Of a stretch of 55,216 nt of DNA, positions 26,943 to 42,418 are shown one piece after another. The DNA is from a virus. Lineage: Duplodnaviria > Heunggongvirae > Uroviricota > Caudoviricetes. The DNA lies in the IMG/VR virus record IMGVR_UViG_3300047274_000273, positions 1-55,216 of that record, one strand, 5' to 3'. A model generated the notes under the pieces. The model worked only from the letters and a program-made list of their open reading frames with translations, had not been told where the DNA came from and did no database searches. The first letter of the stretch is position 1. Each line of letters opens with the position of its first letter. The translations under genes were made by a program, and so were the position numbers.

Positions 26943-27008
26943 TTCGCTCTCCTTGTTTGTTTGTGTATGTGTCTAGTATACGATCTTTGGGCTCAGTTGT
27001 CAACCAAT

Positions 27009-27356
27009 TTAATCCAGACGTGAGCCAGCGTAGGCTTCGAAGCCGTACTTCTTGAACACTTGGGCCGCAGCTTCAGCACCCTTCTCAAGTGTATCCACGT
27101 TCTGGCAACCAAACTTTGAAGGATTCCACATCTGGAGCCCGCCTGAGTAGCTTGGACGGATATCGCAGGCTTTCAAGGCCTTGCCCAGTTTGGTATTGCC
27201 TTTGATGCCATAGATGTTCACCCAGGCAAAGCCGCAGGCGAAACGATCTTGACCGCCTAGTACCTTCTGGAAGTACTCAGAGGCCGCAGCGTAAGCAGCA
27301 GCTTCAGCTTCACGGACGATTTGGGGGATCTGCTCGGGGGTTGCTGTTACGGACAT
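27009..27356 (-). CDS. Hypothetical phage protein (CGFAWV motif)
   Basis: Promoter and AGGAGCGAAC RBS. Confidence 0.75.
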   Translation of the reverse strand: MSVTATPEQIPQIVREAEAAAYAAASEYFQKVLGGQDRFACGFAWVNIYGIKGNTKLGKALKACDIRPSYSGGLQMWNPSKFGCQNVDTLEKGAEAAAQVFKKYGFEAYAGSRLD

Positions 27357-27412
27357 AGTTCGCTCCTAAGTTGTTTACAGTGTTTACAGTATATGATCTT
27401 CGGGCTCAGTTG

Positions 27413-27643
27413 TCAACCAAAATGTTTCAATAGCCCGCCGAAGCATAGGGTTATCGCCACCACATTTATGACCATCTGCGGATAGTTCTTGACCCTTAGG
27501 GTCCAGATGAAATAGCTGATCCCGCCTAAGAGTCCGAAGACCACGTTCCAGGGATGCAGTTGCGGGAAGTAGCTCATCAGCACATACATCACGAGGATGA
27601 ATGCTGTGCCTACCCATTGTATCGTGTCGTTTATCTTGTCCAT
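27413..27643 (-). CDS. Small membrane protein
   Basis: Three TM segments, IQWVGT...PWN, similar to 22072-22302. Confidence 0.65.
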   Translation of the reverse strand: MDKINDTIQWVGTAFILVMYVLMSYFPQLHPWNVVFGLLGGISYFIWTLRVKNYPQMVINVVAITLCFGGLLKHFG

Positions 27644-27661
27644 GTAGTTATTGTACGATCT

Positions 27662-27907
27662 TTAGCCCAATTTGTCAACCTTTTGGCTGTTGCAGAATTG
27701 CCACATCTTGAGCTCGGCTCCCCGCAGTCCCAGCAAGACTCCCTCGAAGTCTCGATAGGAACAGCAGCCTGCCACGTTCGGATACACGGTGTAGCCATAG
27801 AACTGATTGTCCCTCCGCGCCCGAGTAACAGCAGCCTTGGCGGGTCCTGGCTTCTTATAATACTTGACCAGGTTCCCATTCTCGTCGTAGGTTACCCAGC
27901 CACCCAT
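27662..27907 (-). CDS. Hypothetical protein
   Basis: TGATG-coupled ATG at 27907. Confidence 0.55.
   Translation of the reverse strand: MGGWVTYDENGNLVKYYKKPGPAKAAVTRARRDNQFYGYTVYPNVAGCCSYRDFEGVLLGLRGAELKMWQFCNSQKVDKLG
27688..27705. promoter_or_regulatory. Palindromic box TGTKGC-N6-GCMACA (first of six)
   Basis: Other copies at 28674, 29434, 33746, 36985 and 40013. Confidence 0.7.
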
Positions 27908-28143
27908 CAAGCCACCTCTTTGTAGACCCGGTAGCCGTAGATTGCGAGTTTGCGGATCGCGGCCTGGATATCCTGATGATCCAACTCTAGGTCTTCCAGG
28001 CACTTCTTGGCTTCCTTGATGGTGTCTGCGGTGCAGGTCAGACCTGAGTAGATATGGCGGCAGTCGTAGTAGCGATCACCATCGTCTGTGACCAGTTGGT
28101 AAGTACCAAAGGTCTTGTACATGATCATTTCGCCTGTTTTCAT
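27907..28143 (-). CDS. Hypothetical protein
   Basis: Promoter and AGGAGCGAAC RBS. Confidence 0.65.
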   Translation of the reverse strand: MKTGEMIMYKTFGTYQLVTDDGDRYYDCRHIYSGLTCTADTIKEAKKCLEDLELDHQDIQAAIRKLAIYGYRVYKEVA

Positions 28144-28198
28144 AGTTCGCTCCTTTTGTGTTACTGTGTGTGTATTATATGGTCTTTTGGATAACCCG

Positions 28199-28405
28199 TC
28201 AACCAGCCATTCTCATCAGCTGCATCAAGCGGTTCTGCAGCTGATCTACCTCTGAGTTCTCCACGTAGAAGTCCGTGGTGGGATCCCAGTACTGGCCCTG
28301 TCCGGGATCATAGTACAAGACTCGATCTACGAACCAGAACGGACCTTCCAGTCCTGGTCTAGGCTGCCACCGGCGATCGCGATCGGCCACTGTGATCCAG
28401 CCCAT
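28199..28405 (-). CDS. Hypothetical phage protein (GLEGPF...LYYDP motif)
   Basis: GAGG RBS, ATG at 28405. Confidence 0.65.
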   Translation of the reverse strand: MGWITVADRDRRWQPRPGLEGPFWFVDRVLYYDPGQGQYWDPTTDFYVENSEVDQLQNRLMQLMRMAG

Positions 28406-28406
28406 G

Positions 28407-28601
28407 TTAACCTCTCTGATCGTAGTGGTCTGAGTTCTGCAGCGCCAGGCTGCCACAGGCCATCAGGGCCAGACCCAATATGGCCACTATGATCTGCTCA
28501 ATGAAGTAGGCTTCTTTGGCGGGGTCTTCCATGCCGCCCACTGCGCCAAAGGTTAAAAGTAGTCCAAACATGGCCATGGCAGCTGCTGTGCGAGTTTTCA
28601 T
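28407..28601 (-). CDS. Small 2-TM membrane protein
   Basis: GAVGGME motif, similar to 26760-26942. Confidence 0.65.
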   Translation of the reverse strand: MKTRTAAAMAMFGLLLTFGAVGGMEDPAKEAYFIEQIIVAILGLALMACGSLALQNSDHYDQRG

Positions 28602-28683
28602 TTAACGTGCTCCTAGTTGTTTAGTGTATGTGTGTATTATAGCAAGGTTAGTCCAATCTGTCAACCAATTTGTTGTTGCGTTT

Positions 28684-29244
28684 TTACAACTGGTCGAAGT
28701 ATTCTAGTTCTTCTAGGCTCAGGGCGGGTCTGCGTTTAGCACCATTGAGGCGGCACTGGCCTTTGGCTATGCGTGTTTCTAGGATGCGTGTTTCCATGGC
28801 AGCGATCTTCTCTTTGCCCACGCCTTCTAGATTGATGAAGCGGATGTATAACCGATCTAGGATCGTGGGCAGATCATAGCCCAGATCATGTAGATCTTTT
28901 CTCAGGGCTGCGAACTCTCGGGTGTCTGCCACGCGGCCCTTTGATGGTGCGCCCGAGACGGGATCTGCGAAGGATATGCCCGTGAGCTTGAAAGCATGGC
29001 TGAGCCAGCGTTGCTTGACCCCTTCGCGAGCGGTCTGCTTGTCCGCTCCGGAGATGCCTAGGTACAGCATACCGAATCCTGGGGTAGCTTCCGTGCCCTC
29101 TAACCATAGGGTGTAGATGCCCTTGGGCATCTTGGTATCGGAGTTGGTGCGGATGGTCTTCTTGTCGCCCTTGCTGCTGTCAGTGACATAGACGTGATCA
29201 GTGAAGGGGATCCGCTGTTTGAATTGCTCGATGATCTTGCTCAT
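28684..29244 (-). CDS. GIY-YIG-like nuclease
   Basis: GIY...LYLGIS...QRWLSH, conserved Glu and Asn. Confidence 0.6.
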   Translation of the reverse strand: MSKIIEQFKQRIPFTDHVYVTDSSKGDKKTIRTNSDTKMPKGIYTLWLEGTEATPGFGMLYLGISGADKQTAREGVKQRWLSHAFKLTGISFADPVSGAPSKGRVADTREFAALRKDLHDLGYDLPTILDRLYIRFINLEGVGKEKIAAMETRILETRIAKGQCRLNGAKRRPALSLEELEYFDQL

Positions 29245-29251
29245 AGGCTGT

Positions 29252-29365
29252 TCACAGAGCTGCTATGTTGACTAACAGTGCTGAGGTCAACAGCAGTGCG
29301 GCTTGGATGATGCCAGTGATCCAACCCACGTAGACCACAGCGATAAAACCGATCAGTTTCAACAT
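29252..29365 (-). CDS. Small hydrophobic protein (37 aa)
   Basis: Promoter and AAGGAGCG RBS. Confidence 0.55.
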   Translation of the reverse strand: MLKLIGFIAVVYVGWITGIIQAALLLTSALLVNIAAL

Positions 29366-29428
29366 ATGCGCTCCTTTTCTATCTAAGTGTTTGTAGTATA
29401 CAACCAATCGGAGGCTTTGTCAACCAAT

Positions 29429-29791
29429 TTATCCGTGGCTTTTTTGCAACAGTTCTGCGTCTGCGCCCTGTATCACGAAGTTCTCTGTGGGGAATCTCTT
29501 TTGGATGATCTGGAACAGCTCGTCCTGATCTCGCCCTTGGCCTAGGAACTGTTCTGTGTCTGCTCGGAAAGCATACAGGGTATCAGCATGGCACTCCAAG
29601 CGGATCTGGATCCTAGTCCCACCTACTTTAACTGCAGGCTGTCCCGTGATCTCGGAGTGTATGGCTTCCAGTTGCTGATCTTTGATGTCCAGCTTCTGCA
29701 TCAGGGAAGTGAACGCAGTGGTCATGAACCACTCACAGACCCTCCATCCGATGACTAGACCTAGGCTAAGGCCTATAAAGAAATCAATCAT
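29429..29791 (-). CDS. Hypothetical protein with N-terminal TM segment
   Basis: TAATG coupling at 29791. Confidence 0.6.
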   Translation of the reverse strand: MIDFFIGLSLGLVIGWRVCEWFMTTAFTSLMQKLDIKDQQLEAIHSEITGQPAVKVGGTRIQIRLECHADTLYAFRADTEQFLGQGRDQDELFQIIQKRFPTENFVIQGADAELLQKSHG

Positions 29792-30117
29792 TAGGTTCTC
29801 CGGGGTTTGAGCAGAGCCTGCGATTCCTTGCGTAGTAGTCCTGCTCTGCGGTACATGTCGTCGGCTTCTCGATTCATGGCATCTGATCTGGCTTCTGCGA
29901 GCTTGCTGCCGCCGAACTCTCGATCGACGTAGTATTGGATAAGGCTGTTCTTGATCATAGTGGGCAGATCGTGTCCTGTGTCCTCGGGACAGACGAAGCG
30001 TACAGGGCAACGGCCCCATCCACCATACTCTAGGAACTCTGCGTAGTAGCGTCTATGATCTTTGTTGTAGGGATCGAAGGCCACTAAGGGCCTACAAAGG
30101 AACTCAAGTTTGCTCAT
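29791..30117 (-). CDS. Hypothetical phage protein
   Basis: 108-aa ORF after the promoter at 30182. Confidence 0.65.
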   Translation of the reverse strand: MSKLEFLCRPLVAFDPYNKDHRRYYAEFLEYGGWGRCPVRFVCPEDTGHDLPTMIKNSLIQYYVDREFGGSKLAEARSDAMNREADDMYRRAGLLRKESQALLKPRRT

Positions 30118-30193
30118 TTACTATTGTGCGCCTCTCGGATTGTTACTTATATATCATTATTATACTGAAAGTATTGACTGATGTCAACCTTGT

Positions 30194-30226
30194 AAAAAAA
30201 CCCTAGTGTACGTGTGTACACTAGGG
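30194..30226 (-). terminator. Intrinsic terminator
   Basis: 11-bp stem CCCTAGTGTAC/GTACACTAGGG plus T7. Confidence 0.85.
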
Positions 30227-30232
30227 CACCAA

Positions 30233-30271
30233 GTTGCCGTTTTCCGGGAGCGAATCGGATTAAGCGGCAAC
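30233..30271 (-). ncRNA. Candidate 3'-UTR hairpin displaying AUUCGCUCC (copy 1)
   Basis: GUUGCCG..UCCG[AUUCGCUCC]CGGA..CGGCAAC; 18 bp identical to 37048-37065. Confidence 0.5.
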
Positions 30272-30565
30272 CGCTGCTGTCTTCGCGACAGTAGCCTTGA
30301 TCACTGCCTTAGGAGCAGGATTCTTCTTCTCTGCGTAGGCGATCGCAGCTTCCACAGCTGGATTACCTGCGCCGAAGCCAATGGTCTTGAGGTGTTGTAC
30401 AGCCTCAGCCTTGGTCATCTCTGTGGGCAGCTCCACGAGCTCCACATCCTTGTGGCCGTTCTTGGCCAGGATCTTGATACGCATGGTATCATTGGCAAAA
30501 CGCAGCTTGGTCTTGCCTTCAAGGGTTGAAACACCTGCAACCGCGAACTTTTTATCTGTAGCCAT
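30260..30565 (-). CDS. Hypothetical phage protein with Ala/Lys-rich tail
   Basis: GGAG RBS, own promoter and terminator. Confidence 0.75.
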   Translation of the reverse strand: MATDKKFAVAGVSTLEGKTKLRFANDTMRIKILAKNGHKDVELVELPTEMTKAEAVQHLKTIGFGAGNPAVEAAIAYAEKKNPAPKAVIKATVAKTAAVAA

Positions 30566-30647
30566 TTTACTAATCTCCAAAGTGTGTGTATGAAATAGCC
30601 AATCCATTTATTGGCATAGTTTACTATAGCACAACTATCCAAGTAAG

Positions 30648-30839
30648 TCAACCATTTGGTTGCCCAAATTGCGGGGTTACTTGGATAGTCACGCTCTCCT
30701 TCTCGTCTAGGGCGGCGATAAACTCGTCGTCCATGACCAGATCCTGCATGGCCAAATCGATCATCGATTCGACCCTATCTAGATCGGCTGCACCGTCACC
30801 GGCACAGCTCACCGTGAATGTATAGGTCAGAGTCCTCAT
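30648..30839 (-). CDS. Hypothetical protein
   Basis: ATGA-coupled ORF. Confidence 0.6.
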   Translation of the reverse strand: MRTLTYTFTVSCAGDGAADLDRVESMIDLAMQDLVMDDEFIAALDEKESVTIQVTPQFGQPNG

Positions 30840-31462
30840 GATGTCTTCAACTCCAATTTGTCACTACCTTCTTTGACGAAGCGATAGAGTTCTTCATCCA
30901 TACGCTGTTCCTCTTCGTATTCTGCTTGATTCTCAGAGATAGCGAAGAACTCGTCCAACTCCTCGGGCAACATGTCTTTGGCACCCTGGCTATCACCCCA
31001 ATCGGAGTAGCAGTCATCTGCGCCGTTGTCGTAGACGCCAGCGAAGCACATACCACCTTCATAGTAGTAGGCACGCACCGTGAAACCCTGTTCAACCAGA
31101 GCATCGTAGGCTCCGATGGGAGGGGCCCAGGCACTGTCGAAACTTGCGGTCAACATCAGACCGTCATCACGCACATCCAAGGTGCCATCATCACCACCTA
31201 CATCCCACTTAGTGCCCCAACGGCTAGTCTGGAAATCATACCAGTCCTTGGCACCGTAGAGTTCTAGGTTACGCTTCATCTGAGCCTCATGCTCAGCTCG
31301 CCGGTCTTCACCTACGAATCCTGACACTGTGTCAGTGAGGTCTTTGGGTGTGGGAATCGCGTAGTTGCAGAACTCACCGCGTTTGTAGGCTTCGGCTAGA
31401 TCTGTGATCTTCTGCGGGTCTTCGTGTCCCACTTCTACAAAATTACTGCACCAATTAGGCAT
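30836..31462 (-). CDS. YubB/DUF1281-like ferredoxin-fold protein
   Basis: MPNWCSN, WGTKWD, FDSAWAPP, YYEGG. Confidence 0.75.
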   Translation of the reverse strand: MPNWCSNFVEVGHEDPQKITDLAEAYKRGEFCNYAIPTPKDLTDTVSGFVGEDRRAEHEAQMKRNLELYGAKDWYDFQTSRWGTKWDVGGDDGTLDVRDDGLMLTASFDSAWAPPIGAYDALVEQGFTVRAYYYEGGMCFAGVYDNGADDCYSDWGDSQGAKDMLPEELDEFFAISENQAEYEEEQRMDEELYRFVKEGSDKLELKTS

Positions 31463-31496
31463 AAGTCGCTCCTTTCACTATAAACATATTATAGCA

Positions 31497-31721
31497 TCAT
31501 TGACTCAAAATGTCAACCAATTTCTTGTTCTGCAGATCCTGATAGTTGCGTGTGATCTGGGCATCTACAGCACCGATGAGATTCAGCTCGATGTCTGTGG
31601 CATTTTTGCCACAGATCTGTTCTAGAGTCCTTAAGACCTTACGCTGTGCCATAGGAGTCATTTCAGGATCTTCCAGTGCGGTCACGGCACGGCGAATGTA
31701 TTCGAATTCACTGGGGGTCAT
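31497..31721 (-). CDS. Hypothetical protein
   Basis: 74-aa ORF in the early region. Confidence 0.55.
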   Translation of the reverse strand: MTPSEFEYIRRAVTALEDPEMTPMAQRKVLRTLEQICGKNATDIELNLIGAVDAQITRNYQDLQNKKLVDILSQ

Positions 31722-31923
31722 ATTCTTTCACCATCCTATAAAGTGGGTCCAATTCTTCGGTATCTTCTAGCTCGAAATCGTCTGTGGCCCAATCGATCCA
31801 TTCTTCGGAGAACACATCGACACTGCCGTCTCTGAGCATCTCACGTGCGGCCTCTTCGGTTTCAGCCTCTACGATGTAGGTTTCTGAGACAATGGCATTG
31901 CGCCAAAAAGTAAATCGTTTCAT
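31708..31923 (-). CDS. Hypothetical protein
   Basis: Coupled 71-aa ORF. Confidence 0.6.
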   Translation of the reverse strand: MKRFTFWRNAIVSETYIVEAETEEAAREMLRDGSVDVFSEEWIDWATDDFELEDTEELDPLYRMVKEYDPQ

Positions 31924-32165
31924 CAGAAATCCGCAGTCATCGCGTGAGTCGCATGATCGTACTTGACAAAGACTTTGCCCGTTTCTACTCCCGTACCTGC
32001 ATCATCATGGTAAGTGACCTTGTAGCAGAAGTCCCCACCATTGGTGATGCCTAGGAACTCTGCTGTGTCAAATGAGCACATAGAGTAGCCGCTTTTGTCT
32101 AAGATCACAGCCAGGCCTTTAGGGCCGAATGAAGTAAGGGTTTTCAGTGTGTCTGCTAGAATCAT
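31923..32165 (-). CDS. Hypothetical protein
   Basis: AGGAGCGAAT RBS before the ATG at 32165. Confidence 0.65.
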   Translation of the reverse strand: MILADTLKTLTSFGPKGLAVILDKSGYSMCSFDTAEFLGITNGGDFCYKVTYHDDAGTGVETGKVFVKYDHATHAMTADF

Positions 32166-32214
32166 TATTCGCTCCTTTACTATACCTATAGTATAGCATC
32201 GTCCATCCAATCTG

Positions 32215-32556
32215 TCAACCGATTTCTGCCACGTGCTTGCAGTTACCACGGAAAGTGAATCCTGGGCAGGTACAGGTCCGTTCCTCTACATTAACGAAGT
32301 AGGAGTTGCCTTTGCTGCCCTTGACTTCTAGAACCATTGGCTCTTTCTTCTGGACGAGGGCTTTGAAAGGGTTAGGCTCGAGCTTTTCGAACTTACGTCC
32401 ACGCCGATCGATCTTGATCGTGCCTTTGAGGACTCGGATCTCTCCTGTGCCCCAAGGCCTGTAGGCAACCACTCGATCCCCGTCGAGCAGGTAGTCGTGG
32501 TTGGGTTGCCGATATTCAACGCCCGTCCAAACAGTGGTTTCACGTAGGGCCTCCAT
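32215..32556 (-). CDS. SWIM zinc-finger protein
   Basis: CTCPGFTFRGNCKH. Confidence 0.8.
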   Translation of the reverse strand: MEALRETTVWTGVEYRQPNHDYLLDGDRVVAYRPWGTGEIRVLKGTIKIDRRGRKFEKLEPNPFKALVQKKEPMVLEVKGSKGNSYFVNVEERTCTCPGFTFRGNCKHVAEIG

Positions 32557-32822
32557 TAACGGTAGTCCTTCTTGTCACCATAGCGTTCGTTGTAGTCATA
32601 GCCTTCGTTGTATTCAGCTCGGCTTAATTCGTCTGTGACTTCAACGCGGGGACCACTGTCTCCACCAACACCACCATAGTGAGCACCACGTGGACGACCA
32701 TAGTAGGAATCGGCACTGCCACGATCATAGAGGCTACCGTGATTTGTGCGGATGAACTGCCAACCACGCAGTGCTCGTACCACCTGCTTCTGCTCGTCTT
32801 CGGTCATGATATGTAGGTACAT
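32556..32822 (-). CDS. Hypothetical protein
   Basis: AGGAGCGAA RBS; YDRGSADSYYGR motif. Confidence 0.65.
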   Translation of the reverse strand: MYLHIMTEDEQKQVVRALRGWQFIRTNHGSLYDRGSADSYYGRPRGAHYGGVGGDSGPRVEVTDELSRAEYNEGYDYNERYGDKKDYR

Positions 32823-32899
32823 CTTTCGCTCCTTGTTATTCACTATACCCATAGTATAGCACCGAGTAGCCAAAAGGTCAACCAAAATATCGAAAGACC

Positions 32900-33256
32900 C
32901 TAGACGATCACGGGTTTCCTGGCAGGTGCCCGATCATCCCAGATCCGGTAGCTGTGGTTGGCACGTACCCAGTCTGCGAATGTCTGCGGCTCAGTCTTGA
33001 ACCATGCCATAATGTCGTCGGGTCCTATGTCATCCTGGCTGGTGAACACATAGATCTCGTAGTGCCTATGTGTGTTATACTGTGCCCTGAGCTTGAGCGC
33101 AGTGAGGTTGAAGCTCACGGGCTTCTCAACTCGCTTGCTCTGTTTGATGCTGTCAAACAGATGGTTCTTAGCCCAGTTGTCGGGGTGATGTTCCGTGATT
33201 TCTTCAAAGAACTCCACACCCTCACAGTCCCAAGAGACTAGGTAGTAGCGTGTCAT
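32900..33256 (-). CDS. Hypothetical protein
   Basis: ATGA-coupled start at 33256. Confidence 0.6.
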   Translation of the reverse strand: MTRYYLVSWDCEGVEFFEEITEHHPDNWAKNHLFDSIKQSKRVEKPVSFNLTALKLRAQYNTHRHYEIYVFTSQDDIGPDDIMAWFKTEPQTFADWVRANHSYRIWDDRAPARKPVIV

Positions 33257-33426
33257 GAATTGACTGTGTTGTGCGGGTCGAACTCGTCGGCTTCGTCCAA
33301 GGACTCTGACTGCATCCAATCATAGACTAGTTGCAGAGGACAGTCTAGGATCTTAGCGATCATCTTAGGACCGTGTCCTTCGATATACAGTTGCTCGATG
33401 TCGTAGGCAAGATCACTCACGCTCAT
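33253..33426 (-). CDS. Small HTH-like protein (57 aa)
   Basis: DLAYDIEQLYIEG...IAKILDCP; coupled on both sides. Confidence 0.6.
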   Translation of the reverse strand: MSVSDLAYDIEQLYIEGHGPKMIAKILDCPLQLVYDWMQSESLDEADEFDPHNTVNS

Positions 33427-33548
33427 TGCGCGGTCTCCTTCATGATAACCTGGGTTTTACTCACAGCCTTGTCAATGGCAGATGCTACACCCGACACACC
33501 TACCGTGGCCACAAACATACCTGCGATGAATGCTAGTAGAATTTTCAT
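33423..33548 (-). CDS. Small TM protein (41 aa)
   Basis: AGGAGCGA RBS. Confidence 0.55.
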   Translation of the reverse strand: MKILLAFIAGMFVATVGVSGVASAIDKAVSKTQVIMKETAQ

Positions 33549-33557
33549 GATCGCTCC

Positions 33558-33650
33558 TTAGCCTACAAAGATCCAATAAGAACCTACGGCAATCGCATAG
33601 ACCGCGACCGCGTAGCCCAATAGCTTGATGTCTTCGATTAACCACTCCAT
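33558..33650 (-). CDS. Small TM protein (30 aa)
   Basis: Promoter and AAGGAGCG RBS. Confidence 0.5.
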   Translation of the reverse strand: MEWLIEDIKLLGYAVAVYAIAVGSYWIFVG

Positions 33651-33777
33651 TTTGACGCTCCTTTCTTAACTGTCTAGCCTATAGTATAACACCAATCTGT
33701 CTAGATGTCAAGTTCGGATTTACGCACACACGTAGCAGCGGGGTCTGTGGCTAAAAAGCCACAACCCCTGGCACTCT

Positions 33778-34989
33778 TCAGGCCGCTTCCTTTTCGTAGA
33801 TCACAGTCTGTCCAAAGGGCGCCTCTGCCTGCGTATTACCCTTGACAACGAAGATCGTGTCGCAGTAGTCCTCTTCACCCCAACCACCGCAGGGATAGCC
33901 GTCTGTGAACATGATGAACTTCTTGGGCTGGATATCGTTGTCACGCATGAACTCCCAATTGACTTCAAAGGAAGTACCGCCGCCACCCTGAGGTTCGTAG
34001 TTGACAAGGTCTTCTGAGTTGTCATGAGTCACAGTCTGGTGATTGTAGATCTCAGTGTCAAAGCACCAGATATTGACCTTGAAGTCTTCGAACTGATCCA
34101 TGATGCCCTTGACCTCTGACAAGAACACTGAAGCATCTTCCTCACCGATCGAACCTGACATATCAATGCCAATGGCTACGTCGATGGTAGTTGCTTCCTT
34201 CATGCCCGGAAGGATCGCACCACTGTGAGCACTCTTACGGTTGAAGCGTTGGAACGAGAAGTCGTTGCGAACGATGCTTTGGATCTCTTGACGCACAAGT
34301 TCACGCCAGGAAATCTTAGGCTCAGTCATAGACTTGATCATACGCATGATGCCTGCAGGAGTCTTACCTGCACCAGCGGCCGCGGCACTCTGGATCATGG
34401 CTTCTTTGATCTCATCCTTGATGCGTTGTGCATCTTCCTTAGAGATCTTAGGACGACCCTTGCCATCCTTGTCGCCATCGCCATCACCTTCGCCGTTCTC
34501 ACCATCACCTTCTTTGATGTGCTCGTCGAGCAGGTCACCCAATTGCTTGAGCAGTTCGGGCATACTGATCTTCTCTGCTTTGTCGTAGAGATCATCGTAG
34601 ATCTCTTCCCAAGCCATGCCACGGTACTTTGGATCGTAGCAGATCTTGACCTGGGTGATCTTGTCACCGATACGCTCATCTACAAGGATTTGGTTTACGG
34701 CATAGTCTTGTGCGATGTTGCTGAGCTGACGATCACGGCTACCTACGCGACCAAAGTGGTCAAACACGCAGTGGCAGATCTCGTGACCAAACAAGAATTC
34801 AAGTTGTTTGATCGAGAGCTTTTCTACGAACTTGGTATTGTAATAAAAGTCACGACCGTTAGTGGCCGCGGTTGGGCACCAGTCGTCTGCATTGATCAAA
34901 CGCATACGAGTGGCCATGTTGCCGAAGAAAGGTGCTTTGAGTAGCAGTCCTACTCGGGCAGTGGTTAGTTTATCGATGATCGGGTCCAT
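33778..34989 (-). CDS. DUF2201-type HExxH metallopeptidase plus VWA domain protein
   Basis: HEICH; DMSGS MIDAS; GGGT; MFTDG. Confidence 0.85.
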   Translation of the reverse strand: MDPIIDKLTTARVGLLLKAPFFGNMATRMRLINADDWCPTAATNGRDFYYNTKFVEKLSIKQLEFLFGHEICHCVFDHFGRVGSRDRQLSNIAQDYAVNQILVDERIGDKITQVKICYDPKYRGMAWEEIYDDLYDKAEKISMPELLKQLGDLLDEHIKEGDGENGEGDGDGDKDGKGRPKISKEDAQRIKDEIKEAMIQSAAAAGAGKTPAGIMRMIKSMTEPKISWRELVRQEIQSIVRNDFSFQRFNRKSAHSGAILPGMKEATTIDVAIGIDMSGSIGEEDASVFLSEVKGIMDQFEDFKVNIWCFDTEIYNHQTVTHDNSEDLVNYEPQGGGGTSFEVNWEFMRDNDIQPKKFIMFTDGYPCGGWGEEDYCDTIFVVKGNTQAEAPFGQTVIYEKEAA

Positions 34990-35044
34990 TCGCTCTCCTT
35001 ACTGTATGTATCTATTATAGCACCTTCTGGCACCCTTGTCAACC

Positions 35045-35082
35045 AAAAAAGGCGGGCTAGAGCCCTGGGTGAGCCCTAGCCC
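35045..35082 (-). terminator. Intrinsic terminator after the MoxR-like gene
   Basis: GGGCTAG/CTAGCCC stem plus T6. Confidence 0.65.
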
Positions 35083-35098
35083 TACGATGGACGAGGTC

Positions 35099-36184
35099 TT
35101 AATTCTCCATCGCACTCAAAACATACTTGCCGAAACGCTTGTGGAACTCGTCGAAGCTCGTCATCTTAGTAGCGTCAAAGGGCAGGTTGTAGTTGGTAAG
35201 ACCGGTCTTGGCACCCATGACCACCAGCTCAGTCGGGAAGTTATCCATCATGTAGCGGAAGAAACGGTCTGCCTTCTCGTCAAACTTCTTGTCCTTCTTC
35301 TCAGCGGCATCCTTGAGCTCGTAGCAGAGGCTCACAGTCAAAGAATACATGGCTGACACTTCTTTGATAGCCAAGTCCTTGACCTTGCCGTCGAGGATGT
35401 CTTCTGCCTTGGGCAGTTTACCTGCGATCTTACGGTGAGCCATGAACTTGACAGCAAGACCGTCACCGATAGCACCTGCGACCAAAGTAGTCAGGGTCTC
35501 GTTGTCAACATCGTCGTCGTTGAGCAGGTCGCTGACGAAAACCCAAGAACGAGGAGTTGCGAAACTCTTGCTAGGGCTCTTAGGATCGAAGTCATAGAGG
35601 TCCTGCTTGGCGAAACCCACATAACCAACAACCTCAGGGTGAACATTGTTCATCACAGCCCACTCTTGGAAGTCATCGAAGTCTACCTTCATTTCCAAGT
35701 GCAGGAAGCGGTTAGCCAACGGAGCAGGCATACGGTAGGTAACACCACGGTCACCTTCGCGGTTACCAGCGGCAACGATGTCAACACCCTTAGGCAGAGT
35801 GTAGGTGCCAACGCGGCGGTTCAGGATCAACTGATAGGCCGCGGCCTGTACCGCAGGAGGAGCAGAGTTCAGCTCGTCCAAGAAGATCAGTGCGGTGGAC
35901 TCTGGGTCCGTAGGAAGCTCTGCAGGGGGAGCCCAGACCATCTTGCCTTGTTCTGCGTTGTAATAAGGAATACCCTTGATGTCGGTGGGCTCCCAAAGTG
36001 CTAGGCGAACGTCGATGACTTCGCGACCAGCATCTTCACCGATCTGCTTGACGAGATCGGATTTGCCAATACCCGGAGGACCCCACAGGAATACAGGACG
36101 GCGAACTGAAATCGCCTTACGGATCGCCTTCTTGGCCGACTTAGGACCAACTTGACGGACGGAAATATCTTGTGCTTTTGCCAT
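35099..36184 (-). CDS. MoxR-like AAA+ ATPase
   Basis: GPPGIGKS, FLDELN, AAGN, PLANRF. Confidence 0.9.
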   Translation of the reverse strand: MAKAQDISVRQVGPKSAKKAIRKAISVRRPVFLWGPPGIGKSDLVKQIGEDAGREVIDVRLALWEPTDIKGIPYYNAEQGKMVWAPPAELPTDPESTALIFLDELNSAPPAVQAAAYQLILNRRVGTYTLPKGVDIVAAGNREGDRGVTYRMPAPLANRFLHLEMKVDFDDFQEWAVMNNVHPEVVGYVGFAKQDLYDFDPKSPSKSFATPRSWVFVSDLLNDDDVDNETLTTLVAGAIGDGLAVKFMAHRKIAGKLPKAEDILDGKVKDLAIKEVSAMYSLTVSLCYELKDAAEKKDKKFDEKADRFFRYMMDNFPTELVVMGAKTGLTNYNLPFDATKMTSFDEFHKRFGKYVLSAMEN

Positions 36185-36261
36185 CTAAGACCTCGTTAAA
36201 AAAAGTTGAACTACTAATTGCTTTCCCAGTGTTAGTATTGTAGCACCAAACCACTCAGTTG

Positions 36262-36906
36262 TCAACCACTGATTTTCACATAGTTGAGCTGTGTTGTTTT
36301 ATCGCCACGGATGTTCTTGATCTTGCCCTTGATGCGCAGGGTAGCGTCCTTGGCTAGATCTTTGTTGAACCAGAAGTCCACGAAGCTTTCACCCATGCGG
36401 GCTTGGATCTTGAACTTGTTGAAATTAACATTGTAACGGCTGTTGATGACCACGATGTCACCTTGTACAGCATCCCCTTCAGCTCCTTGGAGCTGTTCCG
36501 AGGTATAGATTTCCCTCTTGAGCTCGGTACGCTGCTGATCACGTTGAGCCACAGAGGGCAAACAGCTGACCACAGCAAAGTCGTAGAGATCGCGTCCCGT
36601 GAATTGATCTTTGGCAGCGATCCGCATGGCAGTCTTTTGGAAGTCATTGAGCTGCCCTGTGAGCGCCAGCAGGGTATAGCTTTTGAAGTGATCCCGCGCC
36701 GAGCGACCTGCAGCATAGTCGGCCTCGGTGACTTCTACGAAGTTGCCGGTACGAAGCCAATCCTTGACCATGTTCTTGTTGGCTTCACGACCACGGCAGG
36801 GAGGAACAGCATTGGGTAACCATTCGGTTTCTTTGAGGTAGGCTCCGTTGATACGCTGCGCGGCAGCAGCACAGGCCCAGACTTGATCAGCAGTAAATTC
36901 CATCAT
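36262..36906 (-). CDS. Hypothetical protein, possible C-terminal OB fold
   Basis: Promoter and RBS; IKGKIK...TQLNYVKI. Confidence 0.65.
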   Translation of the reverse strand: MMEFTADQVWACAAAAQRINGAYLKETEWLPNAVPPCRGREANKNMVKDWLRTGNFVEVTEADYAAGRSARDHFKSYTLLALTGQLNDFQKTAMRIAAKDQFTGRDLYDFAVVSCLPSVAQRDQQRTELKREIYTSEQLQGAEGDAVQGDIVVINSRYNVNFNKFKIQARMGESFVDFWFNKDLAKDATLRIKGKIKNIRGDKTTQLNYVKISG

Positions 36907-37010
36907 CGCTCCTAATCTCTTAGTATGCGTCTATTATAACACTATGTATCCAAAGTGTCAACCACTTTTGGGAGTGCCGGCGGCTGTGGCTTTTTCGCAA
37001 CAAAGAGGTC

Positions 37011-37037
37011 AAAAAAACAGGGTCCTAAGACCCTGTT
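37011..37037 (-). terminator. Intrinsic terminator
   Basis: AACAGGGTC/GACCCTGTT stem plus T-run. Confidence 0.8.
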
Positions 37038-37038
37038 C

Positions 37039-37083
37039 AAAACCGCCCCGGGAGCGAATCGGATTGGTTTTGAGGAGCGAACC
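37039..37083 (-). ncRNA. Candidate 3'-UTR RNA with two UUCGCUCC motifs (copy 2)
   Basis: GGUUCGCUCCUC followed by the hairpin AAAACC..CCG[AUUCGCUCC]CGG..GGUUUU. Confidence 0.5.
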
Positions 37084-37359
37084 TTAGGCTACGGTCCAAC
37101 CAGCAGCCTTGGCCATGTAACCAAGTGCTACGATTTCGCGGCTAGGTTGACCCATTTCGTACTCGGTAACCTGCACACCATTGCCAGCCTTGCGACTGTT
37201 GCTGTAGACAGCATAGCCACCCTTGCGGATGCGGCTAGCTTCTGCGGCTAGATTCTTTACACCAAAACGCTTCTCAGCTTGTGAGGCTGTAAGAGTTTCA
37301 CCATTGTAAAGAGCTTGGAAGACCTTGAAAGTCTTGGTTTCGGGATTGAATCGCTTCAT
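37084..37359 (-). CDS. Winged-HTH-like DNA-binding protein
   Basis: LTASQAEKRFGVKNLAAEASRIRKGGYAV...wing. Confidence 0.65.
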   Translation of the reverse strand: MKRFNPETKTFKVFQALYNGETLTASQAEKRFGVKNLAAEASRIRKGGYAVYSNSRKAGNGVQVTEYEMGQPSREIVALGYMAKAAGWTVA

Positions 37360-37457
37360 TTTTTTTCCTCTATATGTTAACAGCTGATTACTTGTTCTTC
37401 AGCGTTCTTATAATATACTAGAATCCAAAGTATAATGCAAGAACTGTGATCGCCAAA

Positions 37458-37661
37458 TTACTTTTTGCTAACCTTCACGCTGGGCACCGCCATGATGATC
37501 GCAGCGGCCAACCATGTCCAGAACGTGTAGGGTAGCACAGATTCAGGCCAAAGATACCGCCCAAATTCATTTATGGCCCAGATAAAGGCCAAAGGTCCGA
37601 TGGCCACGAAGAACACGATCACGGCCACTAAACCAACGATAGTCATAAGTTTACTCATCAT
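37458..37661 (-). CDS. Small 2-TM membrane protein
   Basis: AGGAG RBS; hydrophobic. Confidence 0.6.
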   Translation of the reverse strand: MMSKLMTIVGLVAVIVFFVAIGPLAFIWAINEFGRYLWPESVLPYTFWTWLAAAIIMAVPSVKVSKK

Positions 37662-37881
37662 CTGCCTCCTGTGCAGCGGCCAAAGCAGCGATCTCGGCGT
37701 CGATGGCCTTTTCTTTCTTCTTACCAGCCAGGGCAGTGCCTCGCTGATAGACTCGCCAGTAGTGTTCACCGCAGTAGGCCTTGCCCTCTAGGGTCTTGGC
37801 ACCACAGTAATGAACAGGCCCCTTGCGGGGATCCTGTTCAGGACCAATCCACTGGCACTCACGGATTGGAATATCAATCAT
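37651..37881 (-). CDS. GcrA C-terminal-like zinc-binding protein
   Basis: CQWI...DP...YCG...GKAYCGEH...VYQ. Confidence 0.6.
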   Translation of the reverse strand: MIDIPIRECQWIGPEQDPRKGPVHYCGAKTLEGKAYCGEHYWRVYQRGTALAGKKKEKAIDAEIAALAAAQEADDE

Positions 37882-38981
37882 TAATGCATCCCCTTCATAA
37901 CAGTGACCTTGGCCATGTTCTGCCAGTTAGTAGGAAAGCTCTTGCGAAGATCCGCGACCTTGAGCACAGTACGCAGGCTCAGCTCACGCATTTGAGCACG
38001 ATGCTCTTTGATGAAGTTAACCACTTCGTCCTTAGCGATCTGCTCAAGCTCGTAGCTATCCAACATACCGTCCTTGACGATCTGCTCAATGCGCAAGACC
38101 TTCTCGCGATCAGTGTCCATGCGCAGGTCAATGTAGTGGCAACGGCTTTCAAGAGCGGCAAGGTGTTCTTGCAGTTTCTTGCTTCGCACATTCTCGAACT
38201 TCAAGTTCGTGATAAAGATAGCACCACCCTTGAACTCGAAACGATCTGGCACACCTTCCGAACGAAGCAGACGGCTGTCAGTGTTCCACGAGATAGTACG
38301 CTTCTTGGATGAATCCAAAGCGGCCTTCAAGATGTTCAAAGACACATCGTCCAACAGGATGCTGTCACAGTCATCAAACACAAGAATGCTCTTAGCGTCT
38401 GAGTACTTGTAGAGCTTGGTGTAGAGTCCAATGGCACTCATAGCACCCTTGACGATCTCGTACTTGGGCTTGCGTTCGCCCAGGGTGTTGAACAGATCTT
38501 CTTTGCTTAGTACTTCTTCAACACCAAAGCTCTTGCCCACGCCTGGAGGGCCAGTGACGATCATAGCACGAACATCACCGCCTTTGACAGCCTTGGTCAT
38601 CTCAGTGAGGATCTCAAAGCGCATGCGAGTACGCTCGATGATCTGCTCATCGGTCTCGTGTGCTACAGCCTCATCAGAAACCTTAACTTGGGTGAAGTCC
38701 GTGACTTCGACACCCTTGACGGGCTTGCTCTTAAGAGCTGTCAGCATTGCTACTCCTTGTGGAATGGGTTTGGCACTACCTGCAACATTGTAGGCACCCT
38801 GCTCGCAACGGATGCGGATGCTACGATCAGGGAAGCCAGGCTGGCTAGCACCTTCGACAGTGACATAGCCTGTACCGTCTTTGGCTACCTTGTAGTCTTC
38901 TACTAGTTTAAAAGTAAGCCCTGCAACATTGGTGGGTTGACCCTTGATGTTGTAGTAACCCTCAGTGAAAGTAATATACAC
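37881..38981 (-). CDS. P-loop AAA-like ATPase
   Basis: GPPGVGKS, VFDDCD, FITN, ALESR; GTG start after AGGAGCGAAC. Confidence 0.8.
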   Translation of the reverse strand: MYITFTEGYYNIKGQPTNVAGLTFKLVEDYKVAKDGTGYVTVEGASQPGFPDRSIRIRCEQGAYNVAGSAKPIPQGVAMLTALKSKPVKGVEVTDFTQVKVSDEAVAHETDEQIIERTRMRFEILTEMTKAVKGGDVRAMIVTGPPGVGKSFGVEEVLSKEDLFNTLGERKPKYEIVKGAMSAIGLYTKLYKYSDAKSILVFDDCDSILLDDVSLNILKAALDSSKKRTISWNTDSRLLRSEGVPDRFEFKGGAIFITNLKFENVRSKKLQEHLAALESRCHYIDLRMDTDREKVLRIEQIVKDGMLDSYELEQIAKDEVVNFIKEHRAQMRELSLRTVLKVADLRKSFPTNWQNMAKVTVMKGMH

Positions 38982-39076
38982 AGTTCGCTCCTGTTGTTTA
39001 TTGAACATACCTCTATTATATTACCAAACAGGGCTGTTGTCAACCCCGTTCAGTAATAACCCTACGATCTCTAGGG

Positions 39077-39520
39077 TTATTCGTCCTCTGCTACCTTGGC
39101 TTCTTCCAGGGCCTGTGCCAGAGGGCCGTCATAGCGTCCGTAGAACTCTACATACCACTGATCGTCCAACCGATAGCAGTAGTTGTATTCCTCGAACTGT
39201 GCTTCGGAACGATACTCTGCGTAGTTCTTGAACACGCGAGCTTCAACACCTGCTTCGCCACGATCTCGTCCGTAGGCCACGCACCAATCCTCTCGCTTAT
39301 CACCCTCGGTATAGCGAGCATCAAAATCGTGTGTCTCGCCGATCTCTTTGCGTAGGCTGCTGACATCTCCCAAGAGCATGAGTGCCAAGATCTTAGCACG
39401 ATCCTTGTAGTGTGTCTGCAGGATCTCACCGTTGTTATCCAGGTAACCGTCCCAGTGGCAGTAGATCTGCATGATCTCACCGTTGGGCTGTTCCATTGCA
39501 ATAGTGCTACGAGTTGCCAT
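39077..39520 (-). CDS. Hypothetical phage protein (YCHWDGY motif)
   Basis: Promoter and RBS. Confidence 0.75.
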   Translation of the reverse strand: MATRSTIAMEQPNGEIMQIYCHWDGYLDNNGEILQTHYKDRAKILALMLLGDVSSLRKEIGETHDFDARYTEGDKREDWCVAYGRDRGEAGVEARVFKNYAEYRSEAQFEEYNYCYRLDDQWYVEFYGRYDGPLAQALEEAKVAEDE

Positions 39521-39587
39521 GTTCGCTCCTGTTTGTTTAACTTAGCCTAGAGTATAACACGGGCCGGAGCCCGTGTCAACCAATTTG

Positions 39588-39941
39588 TTAAATACCCTGG
39601 AACGCTGTCAGGGCTTTCTGTGCATCCGCGTCCAGCATACAGGCGTCCATGGCTTTCTGCTTTTCTGCTTCCACGGTCTTGCGATATGCCGCCAGCTCTG
39701 CGACCTTGGCTTCCATAGCAGGCCACACTACATCGGATGGGTTGAGGTAAGGACCAGTATAGTCCACCTTGTCCTCTTTAAGGGTGATCTCGCCTGAGCG
39801 GATGCCCTCAAACACCATGCCCCAAGTAGGCTGTTCCGGACGTCCTGCAGGGCCATAGAGTTCCACTGCCTTGGCCTGCACCTTTTCACGTGCGATCTCG
39901 TTGAGACGACGCACAAAATACTCACGCTGGGTTTGTTCCAT
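39588..39941 (-). CDS. Hypothetical protein
   Basis: Promoter and RBS. Confidence 0.7.
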   Translation of the reverse strand: MEQTQREYFVRRLNEIAREKVQAKAVELYGPAGRPEQPTWGMVFEGIRSGEITLKEDKVDYTGPYLNPSDVVWPAMEAKVAELAAYRKTVEAEKQKAMDACMLDADAQKALTAFQGI

Positions 39942-39984
39942 TTTTCGCTCCTAAGTTGTTTAAAGGAAGTGCTAGTATAGCACC

Positions 39985-40476
39985 TTAACTGCCAGTTGTC
40001 AACCGGATTTGGTGTGGCTGATCTGCCACAGTGTAGAACGCCTCGATGAAGATGTGATGATCGTCGCCCGAACCTCGGATGCAGCGATCAGCAGCTGAGT
40101 AGAGATCACGCCACGTGGGTCCTTCGATGGGTTCAATGACCGCAGCTTCACCCCAGTGGTCCTTGTAGCAGATCTCACGTGCTGCTGTGTAGGAATGCGG
40201 CTGGTTAAGGTCTTGGACATCAAAGATGCTCCAGATTGAGCGCAGTCCCAGCTCTTCTTGCACGGTACTATAGTGCTCCATCTTGTCCTCAAACGCACGA
40301 TTGTCCTGCGCATAGGCATCTTCAAGTCCCGCTTCAAAGCTCTTGATCACCCTGTGCAGCTGACCAGCGAGGTCATCACTGATGATGCCGGTCAGTCTCT
40401 CCTGTATGGTGCGCAGCTCGCAGAGAGTGTTATGTACAGTGGTAAAGTCTCGGCCCTGAATGGTCACGGTTTCCAT
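39985..40476 (-). CDS. Hypothetical protein
   Basis: Promoter and RBS; DDHHIFIE. Confidence 0.7.
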   Translation of the reverse strand: METVTIQGRDFTTVHNTLCELRTIQERLTGIISDDLAGQLHRVIKSFEAGLEDAYAQDNRAFEDKMEHYSTVQEELGLRSIWSIFDVQDLNQPHSYTAAREICYKDHWGEAAVIEPIEGPTWRDLYSAADRCIRGSGDDHHIFIEAFYTVADQPHQIRLTTGS

Positions 40477-40512
40477 GGTCTGCTCCTTGTTTGCTCAGTG
40501 TCTATTGTATGC

Positions 40513-40875
40513 TCAGGCAGGGACTGTGTCAACCACTTTGGCTAAAGACCCTATGAGCCTGCGGGCTTCTTCACGTGCTTCCCGCATAGCTTCGTGGATC
40601 AGGTCCTCAGCAGTGCCGTCCTTGAGTACTTCACGGGCATCTTCGTAGCAGCATCCGCCCAAGTAGTGTGAGCCCAACTCATGCCCGTCAAGCATGACTC
40701 GTACACGCAGCATGAACCAATCAAGATCGTACGAATCGATCTTACGGCAAAGCTCGTCGAGGTCTGTGACAGTGTCATCAAAGCAGTCACGAGGGCTGAT
40801 GTCTTCCCAGGTCTTGTCTACGATGATGTCAAAGCCATCGCGCTGCATAGCAGCTAGAGTGTCCCAGTGTCTCAT
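40513..40875 (-). CDS. Hypothetical protein
   Basis: ATGA-coupled; YLGGCCY. Confidence 0.65.
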   Translation of the reverse strand: MRHWDTLAAMQRDGFDIIVDKTWEDISPRDCFDDTVTDLDELCRKIDSYDLDWFMLRVRVMLDGHELGSHYLGGCCYEDAREVLKDGTAEDLIHEAMREAREEARRLIGSLAKVVDTVPA

Positions 40876-41192
40876 CGTGGAATCCTCACTACCATGCCCT
40901 GGGCTGTGGATACCACTTCATAGCCTTTAGACTCTAGGATGCTGACTGCCTCTCGGGCCAGCGCACGATCACGCTTTATGGCACCCGCTATCTTTACCGC
41001 TATGAACTTCTTGCGATAATTGATATAGCTCTCTGCGTAGGCATAAGCAGTGTCCAGCAGGTCCAGGGCTCGCTGCGCTAGGCATTGCTGGGAGAGTGTG
41101 TAGGTCGCTGCCATCTCGCGATTGCGATAGTAGGCATTTACGGCTGCGCCACGGCCATTGTCCTCGGCGTCTCTGTATCTCAGTTGCTTCAT
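40872..41192 (-). CDS. Hypothetical protein
   Basis: Promoter and RBS. Confidence 0.7.
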   Translation of the reverse strand: MKQLRYRDAEDNGRGAAVNAYYRNREMAATYTLSQQCLAQRALDLLDTAYAYAESYINYRKKFIAVKIAGAIKRDRALAREAVSILESKGYEVVSTAQGMVVRIPR

Positions 41193-41254
41193 AGTTCGCT
41201 CCTATTTGTTCACTGTTTTAATAGTATAGCACCTCTAGCCCAAACTGTCAACCC

Positions 41255-41886: not shown

Positions 41887-41971
41887 ATGTATATTGTACG
41901 ATCTTCTGCCCAATCTGTCAACCAAAATACCTATAGTTGACCCTGCTCTAGGGTTTCTAGTCGCCCACAAG

Positions 41972-41991
41972 TTATCCACAACTTATCCACA
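41972..41991 (+). promoter_or_regulatory. Two tandem perfect DnaA boxes (TTATCCACA)
   Basis: At 41972-41980 and 41983-41991, intergenic. Confidence 0.6.
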
Positions 41992-41997
41992 GCCAAG

Positions 41998-42033
41998 AAA
42001 AGACCCTATACCCAACTCGAGTATAGGGTCTTT
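41998..42033. terminator. Terminator downstream of the tRNA cluster
   Basis: 13-bp perfect stem with T-runs on both strands. Confidence 0.8.

Positions 42034-42340: not shown

Positions 42341-42418
<78 letters not shown>

Follow-up and report, generated by a model that had tools for sequence, protein, structure and literature searches.

A conserved 3' untranslated region loop complementary to early-leader Shine-Dalgarno sequences in T4-like phages

The window analysed here (55,216 nucleotides, nt) makes up the first 55 kb of IMG/VR virus record IMGVR_UViG_3300047274_000273, which has a length of 138 kb and is estimated to be 39% complete. Its minus strand carries a cluster of small early genes, and two of these genes, referred to below as carrier genes 1 and 2, are followed by 3' untranslated regions (UTRs) that contain the same hairpin. 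The nine-base loop of this anti-leader hairpin, AUUCGCUCC, is complementary to the Shine-Dalgarno (SD) sequence of 11 window genes together with the bases that extend it. Across relatives the loop and the leader are gained, lost and exchanged together, which strongly supports pairing of the two as RNA.

The early gene cluster, its hairpins and its leaders

The features that carry the argument are the early cluster, the two carrier genes, an early AAA ATPase gene and the hairpins and terminators at the ends of their transcription units.

26975..42759, minus strand: early gene cluster with ~23 near-consensus sigma70 promoters (TTGACA-17-TATAMT), small genes and few terminators
37881..38981, minus strand: early AAA ATPase, phrog_1250, with its own promoter (-35 at 39043) and the leader AGGAGCGAACUGUG
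37084..37359, minus strand: carrier gene 2, encoding a 91-amino-acid winged-helix protein (Pfam HTH_39, phrog_4973)
37072..37083, minus strand: extra linear anti-leader copy GGUUCGCUCCUC, adjoining the stop codon, a 10-nt complement of AGGAGCGAAC
37037..37073, minus strand: anti-leader hairpin copy 2, loop nonamer AUUCGCUCC at 37051-37059, closing stem CCG/CGG
37011..37035, minus strand: intrinsic terminator after copy 2, 7-bp GC stem (37035-37018) and U7, from the sequence and the fold
30260..30607, minus strand: carrier gene 1, ~101-115 amino acids, with its own sigma70 promoter (-35 at 30651) and the SD GGAGAUU
30235..30269, minus strand: anti-leader hairpin copy 1, loop nonamer AUUCGCUCC at 30247-30255, closing stem CCG/CGG
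30193..30227, minus strand: intrinsic terminator after copy 1, 12-bp stem (30227-30200) and U7, from a terminator scan and the sequence

Since the cluster lies on one strand and has many promoters and few terminators, nested transcripts converge on the loop-bearing 3' ends. The hairpins were recognized from an 18-mer, CCGGGAGCGAATCGGATT, that has only two exact copies on the plus strand of the window (30244-30261 and 37048-37065) and no further copies with up to three mismatches (shuffle mean 0.03). The genes around both copies are on the minus strand, so that the RNA sense is AAUCCGAUUCGCUCCCGG. The 18-mer of copy 1 overlaps the TAA stop of the open reading frame (ORF) 30260-30607, and that of copy 2 lies 19 nt past the stop of the ORF 37084-37359. 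Both copies fold as CCG[AUUCGCUCC]CGG, and the outer stems on which this core is mounted are GUUGCCG/CGGCAAC for copy 1, with the 5' arm within the final codons of carrier gene 1, and AAAACC/GGUUUU for copy 2. The minimum free energy (MFE) fold of copy 1 leaves the loop unpaired, and the nonamer of copy 2 has a P(unpaired) of 0.99; the covariance model scores the two copies at 29.1 and 33.8 bits, respectively.

The loop is the reverse complement of GGAGCGAAU, and the corresponding leader sequence is strongly overrepresented: AGGAGCGAA has 8 minus-strand occurrences against 0.41 expected for both strands combined. The SD AGGAGCGA stands 2-4 nt ahead of the start codon in the 11 genes, and at 10 of these 11 sites it lies 8-17 nt into the predicted sigma70 transcript, that is, within a very short primary leader. 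The sites are as follows, with the two bases after the SD in brackets.

41196..41203, minus strand: target SD AGGAGCGA(AC), 3 nt from ATG; promoter 41251; loop duplex -13.1 kcal/mol
39945..39952, minus strand: target SD AGGAGCGA(AA); promoter 40002
39523..39530, minus strand: target SD AGGAGCGA(AC); promoter 39579
38985..38992, minus strand: target SD AGGAGCGA(AC) of the ATPase gene; promoter 39043
36906..36913, minus strand: target SD AGGAGCGA(UG); promoter 36961; first gene past the copy 2 terminator
33551..33558, minus strand: SD AGGAGCGA(UC) of an internal gene, no promoter directly upstream
32826..32833, minus strand: target SD AGGAGCGA(AA); promoter 32881
32169..32176, minus strand: target SD AGGAGCGA(AU); promoter 32218; 9-nt loop complement, duplex -14.3 kcal/mol
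31466..31473, minus strand: target SD AGGAGCGA(CU); promoter 31516
28147..28154, minus strand: target SD AGGAGCGA(AC); promoter 28202
27360..27367, minus strand: target SD AGGAGCGA(AC); promoter 27416

In the window the loop-leader duplexes have calculated energies between -12.3 and -14.3 kcal/mol, and for loop and leader alike the prediction is that they are mostly accessible. The same leader is widespread in relatives, where GGAG+CGA is the commonest SD extension (30-40% of GGAG-N3...ATG sites). Among 434 unique leader contexts, 95% lie 16-22 nt past the -10 box; an A occupies the eighth position in 69%, the ninth position is taken by C or A in 82%, and from these frequencies a realistic duplex comprises 8 bp.

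A preliminary description of this DNA had reported the identical 18-mer at two places, each between a stop codon and a minus-strand terminator, the shared loop display on unlike outer stems, an extra motif near copy 2 (located here at 37072-37083), five leaders reading AGGAGCGAAC (10-nt match) and one reading AGGAGCGAAU (9-nt match), and carrier genes that do not use the early ribosome-binding site themselves. All of its statements on the sequence hold; the ribosome-binding sites of the carrier genes are GGAGAUU for carrier gene 1 and uagaGGAaaaaaaAUG for carrier gene 2.

One further AGGAGCGA is away from any start codon and forms the 5' arm of a terminator-like hairpin at 23620-23660 on the minus strand (GAGCGAGUGG...CCACUCGCU followed by a U-run). 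The early cluster also contains apparently leaderless sigma70 transcripts on the minus strand (42724 and 41886), in which TTGACA-17-TA(T/C)AAT is followed by six bases and ATG; a further apparent leaderless early transcript is at 27650-27640.

The protein of carrier gene 1, whose true start may be the second ATG (30565), has no Pfam or PHROG match; 19 homologous loci were collected for this gene and 132 for carrier gene 2. The latter closes the ATPase transcription unit and has a weak SD, GAGGA, that is followed by A7. The ATPase itself is 61% identical to the ATPase that is the commonest carrier in relatives (type C below), where the ATPase ortholog directly bears the loop-carrying 3' UTR. 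Homologs of this phrog_1250 protein occur in >1,300 GenBank phage records at 31-40% identity, many of them T4-like coliphages, and are often labelled 'thioredoxin' or hypothetical.

Conservation of the loop and its exchange with the leader

The exact 18-mer is present in 84 IMG/VR viral contigs. In 185,579 prokaryotic genomes (596 Gb) it has 24 matches, in unrelated taxa, against ~17 expected by chance, and this chance level indicates that it is phage-specific. The phages that share the loop are referred to as clade 1, and a sister clade with a different loop as clade 2. A search of Rfam 15 at E <= 1 with the window, 10 clade 1 loci and 5 clade 2 loci gave only tRNA-type matches.

In every contig the motif is in a hairpin loop, with a U-run downstream to which its orientation is constant. 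Over 100 unique instances of the core, the nonamer AUUCGCUCC is wholly unpaired in the MFE fold in 80, compared with 22% when the flanks are shuffled, and at least five pairs enclose it in 95. In a model-based alignment, 8 of the 9 pairs of the outer helix have changed on both sides; its cells are paired in 97.5% of cases, as opposed to 32-50% when the partner is slid, and the observed covariation score was reached by none of 500 shuffles. The stems also co-vary among the orthologous 3' UTRs of copy 1, and the three-pair inner stem co-varies as well (CCG/CGG, GUG/CAC, CUG/CAG, CCUAGG/CCUAGG). The invariant part of the hairpin is the nine-base loop. These results support the loop as a conserved, structurally displayed RNA element.

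The element occurs in three contexts. In type A it is in the 3' UTR that follows homologs of carrier gene 1. In type B it is in that of the winged helix-turn-helix (wHTH) gene, to which carrier gene 2 belongs, and the loop is kept in ~42 of 52 unique orthologous UTRs. Type C, the commonest, is a ~150-nt 3' UTR in which two loop hairpins follow each other and the second doubles as the terminator; the unit reads sigma70 promoter, GGAGCGA leader (19/21), ATPase ORF, two loops and terminator. The hairpin is not a plain terminator in any of these contexts, being additional to the terminator in types A and B and a conserved loop within it in type C, where 18-20 nt are conserved. The loop (as the seed), a terminator and U7-8 are present in all contexts, which is the generic layout of small RNAs (sRNAs) derived from 3' UTRs. 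In two genomes (G012 and G002), 10-15 GGAGCGA leaders follow in series on one strand, with the ATPase gene last and two loops directly after it; from this layout, the loops mark the 3' end of the leader-tagged early cluster.

Other sequences near these 3' ends are also of note. Past the copy 2 terminator and ahead of the -35 of the following promoter there is a box, GCCGGCACUCC(C) (36970-36983, minus strand), that is kept at the same position in most type B relatives (L113-L191) amid variable surroundings. It may serve the adjacent winged-helix protein as an operator, or it may be an UP-like element. In G012 (L213 1556-1600), the terminator past the two AUUCGCUCC hairpins has the loop AUUCCUCCCC, which contains the canonical anti-SD core CCUCC. 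Type C terminators are followed within 10-60 nt by a G-rich box, GGGGTCGG(G/C)N, and a TATA-like sequence (for example in L006, L050, L080 and L213 1620-1660). This box may be another promoter class; the GGTCGG...TATA form seen at type C loci is absent from the genome of this window.

Three other readings of the 18-mer were rejected. For an origin in a tRNA 3' end or att site, based on a T-stem and acceptor-arm reading, ARAGORN and Rfam find no tRNA at the site; additionally, the 18-mer is at chance level in prokaryotes and the upstream copies share the core only. An RNA antisense to helix 24 of 16S rRNA is not supported: the complement is not conserved genome-wide and the clade 2 loop is unrelated. 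For an antisense ORF that would use GGAGCGAAT on the plus strand as its SD, no conserved start codon follows.

The main evidence for pairing comes from the joint distribution of loop and leader. At wHTH loci with the loop, GGAGCGA is present at 244 of 646 SD sites, whereas at the ten loci that lack the loop it is present at none of 63. One genome that is 98% complete (G004) has two loops and 17 tagged leaders; a complete genome of 357 kb (G001) has no clade 1 loop and one tagged site, which is the chance level. The preliminary description had held that relatives keeping the leaders but losing the hairpin, or a loop that is not conserved, would speak against its proposal; the hairpin-less relatives are without GGAGCGA leaders, and the loop is invariant.

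G001 shares the promoter array but has another leader, ...UAGGGCAAAC...(G/A)AGGGCAA...AUG, and AGGGCAA occurs 26 times on one strand in 11 kb. The 3' UTR of its ATPase gene contains three copies of UGCCCUC, the complement of GAGGGCA, in 85 nt, compared with ten forward copies genome-wide. The three copies are in the loops of three hairpins, the last being the terminator (fold z-score -6.9). A first candidate for this anti-address, TTGCCCT, had only chance-level matches, and the real motif, (G)UGCCCUC, was found by the terminator scan. The leaders of clade 2, to which G001 belongs, hold the address twice, as AGGGCAAAC near the transcript 5' end and in the SD (G001: L215 12200-20000, L216 1-3400), which gives two sites per leader for three UTR loops.

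A scan of the collection for three spaced TGCCCTC copies was too unspecific, and clade 2 was therefore sampled through 80 ATPase orthologs retrieved with the G001 protein. It is a diverse, largely marine clade in which the ATPase 3' UTRs have 2-5 loop-displayed (U)GCCCUC motifs. Over 89 motif instances, the motif bases are unpaired in 82%, versus 44% over the UTRs overall, and the typical form is a six-base loop, UGCCCU, on highly variable stems. Clade 2 3' UTRs often begin with a motif copy directly past the stop codon, as does the window's ATPase-wHTH unit, whose linear copy GGUUCGCUCCUC is kept only in the closest relatives (L112, L149).

When unique ATPase 3' UTRs are sorted by leader, the 19 loci with GGAGCGA leaders all have UCGCUCC in the UTR and none has GCCCU(C/U), and the 37 loci with (G/A)AGGGC leaders all have GCCCU(C/U) and none has UCGCUCC (Fisher p = 2e-15, a value that overstates independence because the clades represent few evolutionary events). 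Relative to the remainder of the sense strand, the loop motifs are enriched 100-460 times in these UTRs. In clades that use neither leader, the orthologs are without both motifs and mostly also without a 3' UTR. Thus, loop and leader have been gained, lost and exchanged together across relatives, and the complementarity pointed out in the preliminary description is not coincidental. The swap of a 7-8-nt module on both sides is predicted by base pairing and is not predicted by a protein-site or a relic model.

The exchange bears on two other readings of the loop. The first is that the loop is mainly a protein or ribosome site, either for a phage RNA-binding regulator or as a mimic of the 16S 3' tail that soaks up a factor, and that the leader match is secondary. 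All nine loop bases are invariant though only ~8 can pair with most leaders, and GAUUCGCUCC loosely resembles the 16S tail GAUCACCUCC, as the preliminary description had noted in proposing such mimicry. However, apart from complementing the leader of its own clade, the clade 2 loop UGCCCUC has nothing in common with the clade 1 loop or the 16S tail, a pattern that a protein-site model does not predict. We therefore regard this reading as very unlikely, and the mimicry proposal is not borne out.

The second is that the motif is a DNA-level relic or signal, for instance an inverted fragment of a promoter-leader cassette or the site of a DNA-binding or recombination protein, with no RNA pairing involved. 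T4-type phages do recombine cassettes of promoter, stem-loop and SD, with crossovers mapped both inside loops and in the stretch from the -10 box to the SD (PMC2839356), and a site in double-stranded DNA reads alike in both orientations. Against this, only the 8-9 nt SD core is shared, and no promoter or A-rich leader sequence in inverted form adjoins the loops. Relative to transcription the motif never changes orientation, and it always sits in a hairpin loop with co-varying stems, in a 3' UTR beside a U-run. Relics would also not remain invariant over 100 contexts or be replaced by a new matching motif in clade 2. An origin at the DNA level alone is very improbable in our assessment.

The neighbourhood holds further genes of interest. 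A MoxR-type AAA ATPase (35099-36184, minus strand) is paired with a DUF2201 metallopeptidase-like/VWA protein (33778-34989), a pair common to many jumbo and T4-like phages and often mis-annotated as HNH endonuclease. Three tRNA genes (Leu-UAA, Arg-UCU, Met-CAU) lie within the early cluster at 42081-42418 on the minus strand, and a tRNA trio is also close to the ATPase unit in clade 2 contigs (L337, L345, L373, L383).

Proposed action of the loops on the early messages

Pairing of the loops with the early leaders is strongly supported by the comparison of genomes, and the hairpins probably act through this predicted pairing to lower translation of the tagged early class. The 3' ends of early transcripts display single-stranded AUUCGCUCC just before or inside an intrinsic terminator. 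In the cell the nonamer would pair (8 bp, ~-12 to -14 kcal/mol) with GGAGCGAA, the private SD extension of the ~25-nt sigma70 early leaders. The duplex covers the SD, so the most likely effect is that 30S binding is blocked and the tagged early class is translated less; the paired mRNAs may also be exposed to decay. As one terminator closes many nested early transcripts, the 3' piece that it protects is expected to accumulate with total early transcription. In this reading the loop would work chiefly in trans, on a stable 3' fragment, with the timing of a delayed brake and not of a switch thrown from a later promoter.

The preliminary description had proposed an early-to-later switch that spares leaderless late mRNAs. 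The simple temporal version of this switch is not implied by the anatomy: loops and targets come from the same early sigma70 units, so any switch must act by accumulation. The proposed sparing of leaderless late mRNAs is not supported either, as apparently leaderless sigma70 transcripts occur within the early cluster itself.

It is also conceivable that the loop acts in cis, folding back onto the GGAGCGAA SD of its own, often polycistronic, transcript and tuning its translation or stability, as in icaR or hbs. The type C ATPase mRNA is a closed unit of sigma70 promoter, GGAGCGA leader, ORF, two loops and terminator, and in the window copy 2 terminates the unit opened by the GGAGCGAAC leader of the ATPase. 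The icaR mRNA shows that an anti-SD mechanism exists, and its authors leave cis and trans action undecided (PMC3868564). However, the promoter-proximal gene of copy 1 has the SD GGAGAUU, and the shortest transcript is therefore without a cis target; one or two loops are too few for the 10-15 tagged SDs per cluster; and a role confined to one mRNA leaves the CGAA extension on dozens of other leaders unexplained. An exclusively cis role is thus unlikely.

Several points weigh against repression by loop-leader pairing, in addition to the small number of evolutionary events and the shared early promoters mentioned above. The duplex has a length of just 8 bp. When the loop, together with its closing stem, was scanned for duplex energy over 101 crudely defined start regions, the outcome was not significant: 16 sites had -12 kcal/mol or lower, the control mean was 9.25, and 17 of 200 shuffles reached that count. 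The GC-rich closing stem and generic CUCC:GGAG pairing swamp such a scan, and k-mer and comparative tests were used for this reason. Recombination could homogenise promoter-leader cassettes (PMC2839356), so that leader conservation alone needs no partner. At the level of single variants, a compensatory change was sought and rejected: locus L204 has the loop ACUCGCUCC without GGAGCGAG leaders, and its leaders stay GGAGCGAA. Locus L201, with the loop GUUCGCUCC, fits GGAGCGAAC leaders, which proves nothing, and L377 has UAGGAGAUC leaders yet one GCCCUC in its UTR. Finally, a close cultured relative was not found, the ATPases of the nearest GenBank phages being <=40% identical and their wHTH proteins <=35%.

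A broader picture can be put forward tentatively. Abundant aquatic T4-like phages may shut off their early class by RNA only, with the private SD extension (GGAGCGAA or GAGGGCA) as the address and with anti-address loops that build up and spare host, middle and late messages. In effect, RNA would do here what RegB/RegA do in T4. Address and anti-address would evolve in a lock-and-key manner and might lead to cross-regulation or incompatibility between co-infecting relatives.

If the proposal is true, this is the first case we have found of a lytic phage controlling a temporal gene class by a private SD extension and a 3'-UTR loop, a job that T4 does with proteins (RegB, RegA). The system is present in two large groups of uncultured T4-like phages from freshwater and the sea and would bear on the timing of the infection cycle of very abundant environmental phages. 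It would also mean that conserved bases past the SD can be regulatory addresses and not spacer. The natural pairs GGAGCGAA/UUCGCUCC and GAGGGCA/UGCCCUC are a ready-made orthogonal set and might serve as small translational switches.

Comparison with known systems

The CcsR1-4 or 'cuckoo' sRNAs of alphaproteobacteria, known from the ccaF1-ccsR locus of Rhodobacter sphaeroides, are tandem hairpins with anti-SD loops that are cut from a 3' UTR by RNase E (PMC8034643, PMC4615179). The phage element is also found in 3' UTRs and as tandem hairpins, and both have fixed loops on variable stems. However, the cuckoo loop is the generic CCUCCUCCC, whereas the phage loop is AUUCGCUCC in 100 of 100 unique instances and UGCCCUC in the sister clade, and the phage loops complement a private SD extension, which is GGAG+CGAA in clade 1 and GAGGGCA in clade 2. 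The cuckoo carrier is a DUF1127 gene, while the phage carriers are AAA ATPase, wHTH or carrier gene 1 type genes. The presumed targets of the phage loops are the phage's own early class, unlike those of cuckoo RNAs, and the phage loci have no Rfam match that would place them in the cuckoo covariance model.

In the icaR mRNA of Staphylococcus aureus, the 3' UTR contains a UCCCCUG motif that pairs with the SD region of the 5' leader, and this pairing blocks ribosome loading and makes an RNase III substrate (PMC3868564). The phage element is likewise a C-rich 3'-UTR motif directed against an SD, and the ATPase mRNA bears both partners, as icaR does. A 3'-UTR motif complementary to an SD of the same mRNA is present in type C (19/21) and in the ATPase-to-wHTH unit of the window, but not in the promoter-proximal gene of copy 1. 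The icaR system is single-gene autoregulation, whereas the phage has one or two loop sites for at least 11 identically tagged leaders, and the phage motif, unlike that of icaR, is displayed in a loop beside a terminator and co-evolves with a whole leader family. The predicted 8-bp phage duplex is also short for RNase III.

A phage precedent is the c4 antisense RNA of P1 and P7, in which loop sequences pair around a ribosome-binding site and block translation (reviewed in PMC12197685). Both are cases of phage-encoded loop-RBS (ribosome-binding site) pairing with a specificity that differs between related phages. c4 acts on one target (ant/icd) in temperate immunity and lies upstream in the same operon, whereas the phage element is in 3' UTRs of a T4-like early cluster, in a lytic-looking phage, and has many targets. 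The Rfam C4 model has no match in the window or in the relatives' loci.

T4 RegB cuts within GGAG, and T4 shuts down its early mRNAs as a class via their SD sequences. The RegB endoribonuclease and the RegA repressor have been reviewed (PMC3014915). The likeness is a class-wide early shut-down at the SD, and the difference is that T4 uses proteins where an RNA loop is proposed here, with the SD extension as the class mark.

The PeSL cassettes of RB49 and phi1 consist of a repeated sigma70 promoter, SD and stem-loop before small early genes (PMC2839356). They resemble the phage region in having repeated conserved cassettes of promoter and SD before small early genes, in a hyperplastic T4-type region with stem-loop terminators in between. 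The PeSL stem-loops (GGGG...CCCC) are terminators or recombination sites with no reported SD complementarity. In contrast, most of the phage cassettes are without an adjacent stem-loop; the special hairpins are only at unit ends, and their loop complements the SD of the cassette.

The preliminary description knew of no phage system of this kind. As far as we found, none has been described for phages, and to this extent the statement stands; it needs the qualification that close analogues exist in CcsR/cuckoo, icaR and phage c4. The phage element is not a member of the CcsR/cuckoo, icaR, c4 or RegB/RegA systems, as loop sequence, model matches and gene neighbourhood all fail to fit. What sets it apart from all of the systems compared is a class-wide private SD extension together with a co-evolving anti-address.

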